A DNA stretch of 64,000 nt from an uncultured Actinomycetota bacterium (GTDB lineage Bacteria > Actinomycetota > Actinomycetes > JAHEKZ01). Each line of letters opens with the position of its first letter. Position 1 is the stretch's first letter. Under the pieces are notes generated by a model. It was given only the letters and a program-made list of their open reading frames with translations. It searched no databases and was not told the origin of the DNA. The position numbers and the translations under genes were made by a program. Positions 47,408-51,097 of this stretch are shown one piece after another. Location of the stretch: positions 224,001-288,000 of the forward strand of contig CAVURN010000003.1 in NCBI GenBank assembly GCA_963743915.1, read 5' to 3'.

Positions 47408-48406
47408 TCAGGGACGGACGAGGGTGCGGCCGGTGTTGGCGCCGGCGAGCACGTCGTCCAAAGCAGCGGGCAACTGGTCCAACGACACCTCGCGCGAGCC
47501 GATGTCGTCCAGCCCCCGCGGGCGCAGATCGGTGGCGATCCGCTGCCAGACCGCGCGCCGCTGCTCGATCGGCATCTGCACTGAGTCGACGCCCAGCAGC
47601 GCGACGCCGCGCAGGATGAACGGGAACACCGTCGTCTCCAGCCCGATCCCGCCGGTGTTGCCGGACGCGGCAACGGCGCCGCCGTACTTCAGCGTCCGCA
47701 GGATGTACGGCAGCGTCGACGCGCCCACGCAGTCGACCGCGCCCGCCCAACGCTCACGGTCGAGCGGCTTGCCGGGACCGGACGTCTCGTCGCGCCCGAG
47801 GATCTCGGCCGCGCCCAGCTCCTTCAGGAACCCTTCGGCGTCCGCCTTGCCGGTGGACGCGGCCACCTCGTACCCGCGCTCGGCGAGGATGCCGACCGCC
47901 ACCGAGCCCACGCCGCCGGTCGCGCCGGTCACCAGCACCGGACCGTCAGCCGGAGTGAGGCCGCGCTGCTCCAGCGCATGCACCGACAGCGCCGCGGTGA
48001 ACCCGGCCGTTCCGATGACCATGGCCTGCCGCGTCGTCAGCCCAGCGGGCAGCGGCACCAGCCACTCCGACGGCACGCGCGCGTACTGCGTGAAGCCACC
48101 GTGATGGGCGACGCCGAGGTCGTAGCCGTGCGCGATCACCTCGCTGCCGACCGCGAGCCCGGACGTGCCGGGCTCGACGATCTCGCCGGCGAGATCGACA
48201 CCCGGGATGATCGGGTCGATCCGCGCGACCTTGCCGTTCGCCGTCGAGGCAAGCCCGTCCTTGTAGTTGACGCCGGACCAGTGCACGCGGATCACCGCGT
48301 CGCCGTCGCCGAGGTCGTCGACCGTGAGCTGCCGCACCTCGCGGACAACGATGTCGCCGTCGCGCTGCACGATGAGGGCGGAGAAGGTGGCGGGAACGCT
48401 CGACAT
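47408..48406 (-). CDS. acuI: acryloyl-CoA reductase AcuI/YhdH-family MDR oxidoreductase
   Basis: VNYKDGLA, PGVDLAG, GTAGFTAALSV, VTGATGGVGS, PFILRGVALLGVDSV. Confidence 0.88.
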   Translation of the reverse strand: MSSVPATFSALIVQRDGDIVVREVRQLTVDDLGDGDAVIRVHWSGVNYKDGLASTANGKVARIDPIIPGVDLAGEIVEPGTSGLAVGSEVIAHGYDLGVAHHGGFTQYARVPSEWLVPLPAGLTTRQAMVIGTAGFTAALSVHALEQRGLTPADGPVLVTGATGGVGSVAVGILAERGYEVAASTGKADAEGFLKELGAAEILGRDETSGPGKPLDRERWAGAVDCVGASTLPYILRTLKYGGAVAASGNTGGIGLETTVFPFILRGVALLGVDSVQMPIEQRRAVWQRIATDLRPRGLDDIGSREVSLDQLPAALDDVLAGANTGRTLVRP

Positions 48407-48473
48407 CAAGAGACTCCAAGGCTCGGGGACCTGCCCATCCTCACCGAACCCGACCCGCGCGCCAACACACAGA

Positions 48474-48504
48474 GTGTCGCGTCATCGGTGCGACGTCGCG
48501 ACAC
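48474..48504. promoter_or_regulatory. inverted repeat in the divergent promoter region (candidate operator)
   Basis: GTGTCGCG-N15-CGCGACAC. Confidence 0.4.
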
Positions 48505-48548
48505 ATTGCCGCTGTCCGACGTGCATGCGCACCGACCACCCTTGCTGG

Positions 48549-50696
48549 ATGGACGCCACAGCCAGCACGCACGAGCGGATGACCGCGACGCTGCGGCCAC
48601 TCTCGATCGCCGTCGTCGGCGCCAGCCCCCGCTCGTTCGCCGGACAGGTCGTCCAGCAGAACTGCGCGGCGCACCGGTACGAGGGACTGATCGTCCCGGT
48701 CAACGGCAAGTACGCCGAGATCGCCGGCATTCCCACCATCGCGACGCTGAGCGAGCTCGACACCGCCCCGGATGCGGTGGTCGCCCTCGTCGGGACGTCC
48801 CGCGTCCAGGCGATCGCCGAGGAGGCCGCGGCCATCGGGGCGGGTGCTGTGATCGTGCCGGGTGGAGGTTTCACCGACTCCGGTGGGGCGGCGAACGACC
48901 TGGCCGCGTCCCTGTCGACCCTCGCGGACGTCACCGGCATCTCCATCGTCGGACCCAACTGCATGGGCGTCGTCGACCTGGTCAGCGGAGCCATGCCCTA
49001 CATCGGCACCGTCCCCACGGACGTGCGCCGCGGTCGAGTCGCCGCGATCGCGCAGAGCGGTGCAGTGATCGAGGCGTTGGTGAACTGCGGTGGACGCGTC
49101 CCGTTCTCCACGCTGGTCAGCAGCGGCGGCGAGGCCGTCACGACCACGGGGGACTACCTGCGCTTCTTCGCCGCCGACCCCGAGACCGACGCGGTCCTCG
49201 TCTTCATCGAGGGATTCGTCGACGCTCAGGACGTCCTCGCCGCCGCGCGCGAGGTCGCCGAGGCCGGCAAGACCGTCGCTGCGTGCTTCGTGGGTCGCTC
49301 AGCCAAGGCACGCGACGGCATCCTCGCCCACTCCGGCAAGCTGGCACCGAGCGCTCGCGTCACCGCCGCCGCGCTGCGTCAGGCCGGCGTGGTGCTCGCC
49401 GACGACCTCGACGAGCTCATCACCCTGGGCGAGATCTTCGGCACCGGACGCCACGTGCGTGGAACTCGCACCCATGTCGTCACCAACTCCGGTGGAGAGG
49501 CGAACCTGCTCTCCGACCTCGCCGAGGACGCCGGCCTCGAGCTGCCCGACCTGACCGGGGCCGCCACGTCGCTCCTCGCAGCCCGGTGGCCGGCCTTCCA
49601 CACCGCGAACCCGCTCGACCCCTGGGGGGTCGACGACTACCCGGCGGTCTACCCCGTGGCGATCGATGCCGTCGCCCGCGAGGACGGCGACATCGTCATC
49701 GTGTCGCAGGACCAGCAGGCGACCGCCGGTGACTACGAACGACAGCTGGGGCTCGACCTGGCGCAGTACCTGGTCGACGCCACTGCCGGTCGCGGTGCGT
49801 TTCCGGTGCTGCTGAGCCCGACCAGTCAGGACCCGGACCCAAGACTGACCGACCTCTGCCGCGCGCACGACGTCGCGCTGCTGCGCGGCGCGCGCGGTGC
49901 GTTGCGCGCACTCGGTTCGCTCGCGCGTCGAACGCCTCCGACACGCGTCGTCCACCGCACGCCGCCACGCATCGCAGCGATCGTCGACGGCCTAGAGCTC
50001 ACGGAGGACGTGGCACTCGACATCCTCGGCGACTGCGGCGTCCAGACGCCGCGGCAGTTGCGCGTGGCGACGCCGGAAGCGGCCGTCGCGGCGGCCGCCC
50101 AGCTCGGTGGCCCGGTGGTCGTCAAGGCTGTCGCCGACGGGCTGCTGCACAAGAGCGACCTCGGCCTCGTCGTCACGAACGTCGTCAGTGCCGACGCCGT
50201 ACAGCTCGCCGCCCGCGAGGTGCTGTGTGCGGCGTCCACCGCCGGTCTGTCCGTCGAGCTGCTCGTCGTCGAGCAGATCACCGGAACGCTGGACGTCGTC
50301 GTCGGCTACAAGCGCGACCCGCAGTTCGGCCCCACGACGGTCGTCGGACTCGGCGGCGTCTGGGCCGAGATGCTGGACGCGGTCAGCGTGCACGTCGGAC
50401 CGCTCGACCTCGACGGTGCGCACCAGCTGCTCAGCGACAGCCAGGTCGGCCGCATGATGCGCGAGGCCCGTGGGGGCGTACTCGACGTCGACGCGGTGGC
50501 GCGCGCTCTGGTCGCCGTCACCGACATCGGTCTGGCCCACCCCGAAGTCGTCGGCATCGACGTCAACCCGATCATCGTCAGCCGCGACCGCGCCGTCGCC
50601 GTGGACGCCGTCATCGAGCGGGCGACCACCCCCGAGCCGCACCACCCCGTCGCACCCGCGACATCCATCACCCTCACCCAAGGAGCAACACCGTGA
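48549..50696 (+). CDS. NDP-forming acyl-CoA synthetase (acetate-CoA ligase family, fused alpha/beta)
   Basis: IAVVGAS, GPNCMG, QSGA, AHSG (phospho-His), TNSGG, NPLD, LHKSD ATP-grasp, DPQFGP, DVNP. Confidence 0.9.
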
Positions 50697-51097
50697 CCAG
50701 CGAGATCACCTCCACCTTGCGTATCCGCATCGGGCAGGAGGAGGCGCACTACGGCGGCAACCTCGTCGAGGGTGCGCGCATGCTCAAGCTCTTCGGCGAC
50801 ATCATCACCGAGATCGCGGTCATCACCGACGGGGACGAGGGCCTGTTCGTGGGCTACTCGGACATCGAGTTCACCGCGCCGGTGTACGCCGGGGACTTCA
50901 TCGAGGCGACCGGCCGGGTCGTGAAGATCGGTAACACCAGCCGCACGGTCGAGTTCGAGGCGCGCAAGGTGATCGCATCGCGCTACGACCTCACCCCCAG
51001 TGCGGCGGACGTGCTGAAGGAGCCCGTCGTCGTCTGCCGCGCCACCGGCACGACGGTGATCCCCCGGGAGCACAGCCGCAAGAACCCCGACGCCTGA
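50693..51097 (+). CDS. kal: beta-aminoacyl-CoA ammonia-lyase (Kal/Acl hotdog fold)
   Basis: [56 protein letters not shown] and GTGA overlap with the ligase. Confidence 0.88.

Follow-up and report, generated by a model that had tools for sequence, protein, structure and literature searches.

Three linked genes in an uncultured Actinomycetota bacterium as a candidate route from beta-alanine to propionyl-CoA

The stretch of DNA considered here, a 64-kb window of the genome of an uncultured Actinomycetota bacterium (G000:C3:224001-288000; genome 2.92 Mb on 5 contigs, ~90% complete; G+C of the window ~70%), carries a compact set of three genes that form a candidate catabolic module for beta-alanine or a closely similar compound. 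On the forward strand, a gene for a fused NDP-forming acyl-coenzyme A (acyl-CoA) synthetase of 715 amino acids, DddX-like in sequence and referred to below as the ligase (48549-50696; CoA_binding_2, Succ_CoA_lig and ATP-grasp_5), is followed by a gene for a 134-residue hotdog CoA-ester ammonia-lyase of the Kal/Acl family (“Kal2,” 50693-51097; matches to NF052388 and to 4mtu). The two genes overlap in the tetranucleotide GTGA, in which the lyase start GTG (50693-50695) is interleaved with the ligase stop TGA (50694-50696), and an AAGGAG motif is found 7 nt upstream of the lyase GTG. On the reverse strand, divergent from this pair, lies a gene for a 333-residue MDR reductase of the YhdH/AcuI family (47408-48409; ADH_N and ADH_zinc_N, TIGR02823). 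The ligase start, ATG 48549, is kept in all five aligned regions from the same genus, and the gap between reductase and ligase measures 142 bp from ATG 48406 or 139 bp from TTG 48409. The three genes, the GTGA coupling, and the divergent placement of the reductase had all been described in a first-pass annotation of the window and are confirmed here.

The trio is not confined to this genome. To place it among its relatives, the 80 best loci of 198 relatives, one genome per species, were compared with the proteins of this genome. Twenty of these, from metagenome-assembled genomes (MAGs) of Actinomycetota and from Sinomonas, Geodermatophilaceae, and Chloroflexota, encode a lyase at least 75% identical to that of the window (the clade loci), and the other 60, with lyases 58-67% identical, serve as a contrast set. 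In 19 of the 20 clade loci, the ligase gene immediately precedes that of the lyase; it is represented only by its end at a contig edge in L039, is in several pieces in L038, L044, and L045, and is missing from L053. The reductase adjoins the ligase-lyase pair in 15 of the 20, in one of two gene orders, divergent upstream in Actinomycetota or, in six loci of Chloroflexota, directly 3' of the lyase. Genes of lysine fermentation (Kdd, KamA, KamDE) occur in none of the 20 clade loci. Kdd, alone or together with KamA and KamDE, is found downstream at 44 of the 60 loci of the contrast set, and a ligase of this type is found upstream on the same strand in none of the 60; three Kdd-less contrast loci that were checked have a CoA-transferase and a BKACE gene around the lyase. 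The linkage of ligase and acuI away from kamA and kce, which the first-pass annotation had proposed to look for in other gene neighborhoods, is thus conserved across two phyla. Cultured carriers include Sinomonas gamaensis, Modestobacter, Blastococcus, and Rhodococcus koreensis.

The distribution of the module is nevertheless patchy. Ligase orthologues (77-85% identical) are present in 10 of the 13 other genomes of the genus, with fragments in an eleventh, and none was found in 47 sampled genomes outside the genus, where the best match is 37% identical. Likewise, among 400 other Actinomycetota genomes drawn evenly across the phylum, no lyase is more than 61% identical to that of the window, and metagenome lyase proteins are 77-99% identical among the best 120 of 7989 matches. 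The genus tallies and the 400-genome tally include genomes flagged as unpublished, as do three rows of the tree discussed below (L012, L016, and L018), and no conclusion rests on them.

In a quick maximum-likelihood tree of 104 lyases, with SH-aLRT values as its only support and with rows that exclude Acl1/2 of Clostridium (Anaerotignum) propionicum and the lyase of Stigmatella aurantiaca (ADO72524), for which use of beta-alanyl-CoA has been demonstrated, the ligase-linked lyases form one clade of 21 rows (SH-aLRT 99) and the lyases of lysine clusters form a separate clade of 50 rows (SH-aLRT 98). A third, actinobacterial clade of 27 rows, which includes the other lyase copy of this genome, stands apart from the ligase-linked clade; most relatives in the class carry a lyase of this actinobacterial type. 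Six orphan lyases of Ktedonobacterales (L061, L071, L074, L076, L079, and L084) make up a clade of their own, and in the three of these loci that are annotated the lyase gene is directly 3' of a gene for an EF-G-like GTPase and has no metabolic partner. The window lyase is 75-93% identical to the set from other Actinomycetota and Chloroflexota, among which the Geodermatophilaceae lyases nest within Chloroflexota rows, suggesting transfer between phyla. Public records name the protein “3-aminobutyryl-CoA ammonia-lyase” or “hotdog domain-containing protein.”

Among proteins of solved structure, the ligase is closest to DddX (7cm9; 278 bits, E 1.1e-81, residues 16-695, coverage 95%) and scores lower against the ADP-forming 3-hydroxypropionate and 4-hydroxybutyrate ligases (187 and 185 bits, respectively). 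Three paralogous synthetases of the same genome, used as a control, show the opposite order, with 281, 225, and 226 bits to the 3-hydroxypropionate ligase compared with 214, 180, and 185 to DddX. In public records, the window protein appears as “acetate--CoA ligase family protein.” DddX, an ATP-dependent lyase of the acyl-CoA synthetase (ACD) superfamily that acts on 3-dimethylsulfoniopropionate (DMSP), joins its substrate to CoA and releases dimethyl sulfide, leaving acryloyl-CoA; it accepts neither acetate nor propionate (PMC8163506). The thresholds used there for DddX homologues are E <1e-75, coverage >70%, and identity >30%; the E value of the window ligase, obtained with the smaller PDB set, and its coverage lie within them, and its identity, ~30% by a hand count on the alignment, is at the threshold.

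Five of the six residues of the DddX substrate pocket are kept in the window ligase if Asp208, found as Glu, is counted: His292 corresponds to H261, Tyr181 to Y151, Asp208 to E175, Trp391 to W359, and Glu432 to E397, and the sixth, Phe435, is replaced by L400. The five retained positions are invariant in all 14 trio ligases, whereas each of the three paralogues has other residues in place of Y151 and E175, with W359 and E397 kept only in part. Such a pocket suggests that the substrate is a propionate substituted at C3 with a cationic group, as is beta-alanine, and the reaction proposed for the ligase is the conversion of beta-alanine, ATP, and CoA to beta-alanyl-CoA, ADP, and Pi.

This likeness also lends itself to a different explanation, in which the ligase is a true DddX-type lyase that acts on DMSP or another onium propionate (e.g. 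beta-alanine betaine) and eliminates the leaving group itself, the reductase serves in detoxification, and the hotdog protein buffers acryloyl-CoA as beta-alanyl-CoA or has a side role. The long match to DddX as the best solved relative is in keeping with such an activity, as is the retention of the proposed general base, Glu432, and of the cation-pi residue, Trp391. Moreover, a DddX-like enzyme of only ~23% identity has been reported to be active (PMC13543886), and some Actinobacteria in which no such lyase is known nonetheless make dimethyl sulfide (PMC8163506). On this explanation, however, the partner that is most conserved with the ligase and translationally coupled to it, an ammonia-lyase, is left without a function, and the constant presence of a separate, paired enzyme of this kind implies that elimination is probably not carried out by the ligase. 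In addition, identity to DddX is at the edge of the published threshold, Phe435 is Leu, and neither the window nor any of the clade loci subjected to a Pfam scan has a BCCT or ABC betaine-type transporter, dddB, or dddC. The carriers, to judge from record titles, are Actinomycetota and Chloroflexota of soil, freshwater, and sediment rather than marine DMSP degraders. A DddX-type activity is for these reasons considered improbable. What the two systems would have in common, beyond the fused domain architecture and the equivalents of the phosphohistidine, Tyr181, Trp391, and Glu432, is the end product, acryloyl-CoA, which AcuI can reduce.

The third member of the trio belongs to a reductase family whose members are associated with precisely this product. 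The window reductase passes the “acrylyl-CoA reductase family” model TIGR02823 (427.8 bits, cut-off 297), and its matches of known structure are 1xa0 (367 bits), YhfP (1tt7, 338), AcuI (5gxe, 290.8), and YhdH (1o89, 289.5). It thus shares an MDR subfamily with AcuI and YhdH (PMC3338564, PMC4029986) while lying nearer to the uncharacterized YhfP/1xa0 group, and, unlike them, it is linked to a beta-amino-acid lyase and not to genes for DMSP or acrylate. Its proposed role, again based on family and linkage, is the reduction of acryloyl-CoA to propionyl-CoA with NADPH.

From these features, it seems reasonably probable that the trio is a catabolic module that converts beta-alanine, or a very close 3-substituted propionate, to propionyl-CoA. 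In the proposed sequence of reactions, the DddX-like ADP-forming ligase would spend one ATP to form beta-alanyl-CoA from beta-alanine, the hotdog lyase, translationally coupled to it, would eliminate ammonia from this thioester to yield acryloyl-CoA, and the YhdH/AcuI-family reductase, divergent here and co-transcribed in Chloroflexota, would reduce toxic acryloyl-CoA to propionyl-CoA at the expense of NADPH. This last step would both pull the unfavorable elimination of ammonia and avoid acryloyl-CoA toxicity. Propionyl-CoA would then enter the methylmalonyl-CoA route in this organism and the methylcitrate cycle in Sinomonas. A route from beta-alanine to propionyl-CoA had been put forward in the first-pass annotation and is now supported by comparative genomics. 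The identities of the genes, their coupling and conservation, the separate clade of the lyase, and the DddX-like pocket are established, and what we infer, from family membership and linkage, is the substrate, the direction, and each individual reaction. The annotation had also failed to recognize the combination of genes as one already described, and literature searches, with subscription journals outside their scope, likewise returned neither a route made up of ligase, Kal/Acl, and AcuI nor a paper on a beta-alanine-CoA ligase.

Genes found near the trio in different genomes suggest both how a C3 substrate could be supplied and how its product could be used. An arginase-family guanidino-acid hydrolase is encoded on the reverse strand at 41723-42691 of the window; its best PDB matches are 3-guanidinopropionase (3nip, 278.4 bits) and guanidinobutyrase (3nio, 276.4 bits), scores that do not separate these two specificities, followed by agmatinases at ~204 bits. 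In two other genomes of the genus, G012 and G003, an ortholog 74-78% identical shares an operon with the reductase gene, which it follows in the same orientation at a distance of 9 and 18 bp, respectively. In part of the genus, this 3-guanidinopropionase-like hydrolase may therefore feed the module by converting 3-guanidinopropionate to beta-alanine and urea. Genes of the aminobutyraldehyde-dehydrogenase subfamily, taken here as omega-aminoaldehyde dehydrogenases, stand beside the trio in Modestobacter (701 bits) and Blastococcus (674 bits; cut-off 615). In Sinomonas, a CoA-acylating methylmalonate-semialdehyde dehydrogenase (MMSDH) is encoded upstream of the trio, and PrpD (864 bits, under the cut-off of 950), 2-methylcitrate synthase (634 bits, cut-off 479), and PntAB are encoded downstream. 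The genome under study has genes of the methylmalonyl-CoA-mutase type, and PrpD was not found in it. In two Blastococcus genomes, an Amidohydro_3-like gene is directly beside the lyase or the reductase (L051, 8386-10092; L052, 3356-4762); its product is ~30% identical to a protein encoded in a lysine cluster of genome G000 and could free a substrate from a conjugate.

A number of observations speak against assigning the module to beta-alanine, and most of those that concern the lyase would be equally at home with a C4 substrate. The lyase passes the 3-aminobutyryl-CoA ammonia-lyase equivalog model NF052388, “Lys_ferment_KAL” (177.9 bits, cut-off 160). It is nearer to the lyases of lysine clusters (Kal-Kce-Kdd-KamA-KamDE) in Bacteroidota and Bacillota, with which it shares 58-67% identity, than to the solved Acl2 of C. 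propionicum (4mtu; E 6.7e-29 over residues 12-129), with which it shares ~51% by our own count. It also retains the motif DGDEG common to all Kal groups, which in Acl2 reads DGDIS, and Acl2 agrees with the ligase-linked clade at only two (G54 and T85) of ~10 clade-specific positions. The reductase, which had been annotated as AcuI-type, falls under the cut-off of the AcuI equivalog NF051456 (358.2 bits compared with 440), so that membership in the acrylyl-CoA reductase family stands and the narrower assignment does not. An adjacent reductase is not present in 5 of the 20 clade loci, and in one of them, L038 (an Actinomycetota MAG, 2887-8402), a crotonyl-CoA carboxylase/reductase (Ccr; 504 bits, cut-off 379) occupies its place. 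Further complicating the picture, the module decays in some genomes of the genus: the ligase is in three pieces and the lyase is short in G007 (C7:14816-16621), the lyase is split in two in G010 (C4:291598-291955), and G011 (C19, L116) has no ligase-lyase pair at all, with the reductase and the guanidino-acid hydrolase retained.

The main competing explanation, accordingly, is that the ligase forms the CoA thioester of 3-aminobutyrate (or 3-aminoisobutyrate), that the lyase removes its amino group to leave crotonyl-CoA (or methacrylyl-CoA), and that this product is either reduced by the MDR reductase or carboxylated by Ccr. The equivalog score, the closer relation to lysine-cluster lyases, the shared DGDEG motif, and the Ccr gene of L038 can all be read in its favor. 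Free 3-aminobutyrate, on the other hand, is a rare metabolite, and in aerobes crotonyl-CoA enters beta-oxidation without a reductase, so that an AcuI-family partner would fit mainly acryloyl-CoA. Ccr, moreover, also accepts acrylyl-CoA, at 40% of the rate with crotonyl-CoA (PMC10266731). A C3 substrate is preferred to a C4 substrate because the pocket residues of the ligase correspond to those of an enzyme for a 3-substituted propionate, because the feeder and follow-up genes (guanidinopropionase-like hydrolase, omega-aminoaldehyde dehydrogenases, methylcitrate genes, and MMSDH) indicate a C3 compound and propionyl-CoA, and because an aerobe needs a reductase for acryloyl-CoA and not for crotonyl-CoA. 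The C4 explanation is thus regarded as unlikely, if less so than any of the others discussed here, and the conversion proposed for the lyase continues to be that of beta-alanyl-CoA to acryloyl-CoA and ammonia. In L038 itself, where the Ccr gene and a gene for a PucR-type regulator are upstream of the ligase-lyase pair, Ccr could give methylmalonyl-CoA directly from acryloyl-CoA.

Another possible source of substrate for the lyase is lysine fermentation, genes for which are present in this genome but not in the window. As the first-pass annotation had noted, kamA, kamDE, kdd, and kce are missing here: with the genome's own proteins as tblastn queries (E<=1e-3), KamA-like, Kdd, KamD, KamE, and BKACE had no match in the 64-kb window, and only the two lyase queries, Kal1 and Kal2, matched, both on the window's lyase gene. 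A cluster of lysine type is found on contig C2 (L004, G000:C2:259563-279562), where positions 3319-10366 encode a divergent KamA-like radical SAM protein (154 bits, below the cut-off of 199), Kdd, an Amidohydro_3 protein, KamD, KamE, and a Kal of its own. The 534-residue Amidohydro_3 protein had been considered as a PucR regulator, an assignment that was rejected. A Kce-type BKACE gene is encoded outside this cluster at C1:849654-850544, and a second, broken BKACE gene is on C2. A full lysine pathway elsewhere in the genome, together with a lyase specific for 3-aminobutyryl-CoA, had been named in the annotation as a finding that would tell against its proposal; a cluster of the lysine type does exist, but it does not explain the window lyase because it carries a separate lyase (183.4 bits) that is only 51% identical to that of the window.

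In the corresponding explanation, the trio would be the end of lysine fermentation, with Kce-derived 3-aminobutyryl-CoA deaminated to crotonyl-CoA, this reduced to butyryl-CoA, and the synthetase run in reverse to give butyrate and ATP. It is common for NDP-forming synthetases to run in the direction of ATP formation, and the KamA-like, Kdd, KamD, KamE, and BKACE genes elsewhere in the genome would provide the upstream steps. But the dedicated lyase of the C2 cluster, the lack of lysine genes at every clade locus, and a ligase pocket that resembles DddX and not enzymes for acetate or short-chain acids are all at odds with it. In addition, when five other trio-bearing genomes were searched whole, four had one lyase and no KamD (lysine 5,6-aminomutase) that exceeded the cut-off, and the fifth, Modestobacter, had two lyases in two contexts, as does the present genome. 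A role at the end of lysine fermentation is accordingly considered very improbable.

The direction of the proposed beta-alanine pathway raises a further difficulty, which concerns pantothenate. PanD (PF02261) was found in none of the 14 genomes of the genus, 7 of which are at least 90% complete, and PanC (pantoate-beta-alanine ligase) is encoded in G000; that PanD was not found where PanC is kept speaks against the burning of beta-alanine. The pathway could conceivably run in reverse, from acryloyl-CoA and ammonia through beta-alanyl-CoA to beta-alanine and ATP, and so supply pantothenate synthesis in organisms without PanD. Addition of ammonia to acryloyl-CoA is the favored direction of Acl, and PanD was also not found in the trio-bearing Chloroflexia genome G463. 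However, the other four of the five further trio-bearing genomes do have PanD, three group-II pyridoxal-phosphate decarboxylases in this genome are candidate sources of beta-alanine, no acryloyl-CoA-forming enzyme is linked to the pair, and the conserved reductase would remove acryloyl-CoA irreversibly, in competition with synthesis. A biosynthetic role is therefore considered very improbable.

The region between reductase and ligase may include a regulatory element. The gap (48410-48548) contains two perfect 8-bp inverted repeats, one of which is GTGTCGCG/CGCGACAC, with its outer arms at 48474-48504. Both the 142-bp gap and an 8-bp repeat within it had been pointed out in the first-pass annotation and do exist, but the repeat is within chance, as at least one such repeat occurs in 190 of 2000 dinucleotide-preserving shuffles. 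The left arm of the imperfect palindrome at 48474-48504 is kept in four of the five same-genus regions. Because of the shuffling result and of this partial conservation, the palindrome is a weak candidate operator and is retained as a possibility only. A scan of 47200-51900 found no sigma-70-like promoter and one terminator-like site, at 51168-51181, with no excess over shuffles. A candidate regulator is encoded on the forward strand at 45871-47274 (start approximate), convergent with the reductase, and belongs to the PucR family (PF07905, 96.5 bits; PF13556, 66.7 bits). By Pfam, PucR-family genes adjoin the trio in L038, L049, and L050, and partial ones in L040 and L051; none was seen in the same-genus loci L034-L037.

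Other neighbors are less clearly connected with the trio. An APC-superfamily amino-acid permease (44182-45672, reverse strand; AA_permease_2 137.9 bits, NCBIfam matches sub-threshold only) might take up the substrate or a precursor, a weak connection given that the gene has no conserved linkage to the trio elsewhere. Between it and the hydrolase are genes for two SDR oxidoreductases (42713-44185, reverse strand; adh_short/adh_short_C2), part of a block seen in this genome only; none of L034-L037, L114, and L115 has an ortholog of them next to the trio. The block of permease, two SDRs, and deacetylase was rejected as part of the core of the module, as it is not beside the trio in those same loci. 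On the other side of the trio, an open reading frame of 161 residues (51223-51708), which has no Pfam or NCBIfam family and is conserved within the genus only, was likewise rejected as a part of the module. It is followed by genes for a Cof-type HAD phosphatase (51705-52580, reverse strand) and a TrpB-like pyridoxal-phosphate enzyme (52560-53924, forward strand; NF009057, 731 bits); the order of these three genes is kept in L034-L037, and outside the same-genus loci they have no link to the trio.

Two further observations were made in passing. In an uncultured Clostridia contig (L078, 8001-10976), with no lysine genes within 8 kb, a lyase gene is followed by a gene for an 844-residue protein with two family-III CoA-transferase domains, the architecture of the DMSP lyase DddD; this may be another route for a beta-substituted propionate. 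In G000, several genes are found as adjacent in-frame pieces, namely an MMSDH-like gene (C1:759324-760758), a BKACE gene (C2:649949-650754), and an aldehyde dehydrogenase gene (C5:453527-454906), and these are either pseudogenes or the result of insertion/deletion errors in the assembly.

Comparison with pathways that have been characterized illustrates which elements of the proposed route would be new. To our knowledge, the only organism known to break down beta-alanine by way of beta-alanyl-CoA is an anaerobic fermenter, C. propionicum, in which activation is by a CoA-transferase. Its acryloyl-CoA reductase is an Etf-linked complex; the reductase of the window is a soluble, NADPH-type MDR enzyme. 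The fermentative route consists of beta-alanine CoA-transferase, Acl1/Acl2, and acryloyl-CoA reductase (Herrmann et al. 2005, cited in PMC4619459 and PMC10266731; 4mtu/4mzq). The two routes would share a homologous hotdog lyase and the logic of thioester formation, elimination of ammonia to acryloyl-CoA, and reduction to propionyl-CoA, and they would differ in activation, here by an ATP-dependent NDP-forming ligase, in the carriers, here Actinomycetota and Chloroflexota, and in a lyase that is here nearer to Kal than to Acl2. The closest precedent for pairing a ligase with a lyase, and the only one returned by the same literature searches, is the beta-valine pathway of Pseudomonas sp. SBV1, with the ligase BvaA and the CoA-dependent ammonia lyases BvaB1/B2 (PMC4619459). 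In both, a beta-amino acid would undergo ATP-dependent ligation to CoA followed by deamination of the thioester. BvaA, however, is a PaaK-like adenylating enzyme and BvaB has a crotonase fold, so that both are unrelated to the window proteins, and the beta-valine pathway includes no reductase.

If the proposed functions are correct, aerobic members of the Actinomycetota and Chloroflexota would break down beta-alanine in an ATP-driven manner, which would make this a new catabolic variant. A broader proposal, about as likely as not, is that the DddX branch is a general family for activating 3-onium-propionates, that the window member would be the first natural ATP-dependent beta-alanine-CoA ligase, and that the trio would be a horizontally mobile, aerobic route through acryloyl-CoA in non-marine bacteria. 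Such a ligase is sought in pathway engineering: of 10 synthetases screened in the HOPAC study, none was found to ligate beta-alanine (PMC10266731), and the ligase family of the trio offers a concrete candidate. The functional range of the DddX family would also be widened, which matters where metagenomic dddX-like genes are tallied as DMSP lyases. Finally, the authors of work on AcuI and YhdH have raised the question of how bacteria that make no use of DMSP come by acryloyl-CoA, and have put forward beta-alanyl-CoA as a source yet to be verified (PMC4029986). The linkage of the trio makes this question testable, and the widespread YhdH/AcuI reductases would, if the proposed route is correct, gain a physiological source of substrate outside DMSP metabolism.

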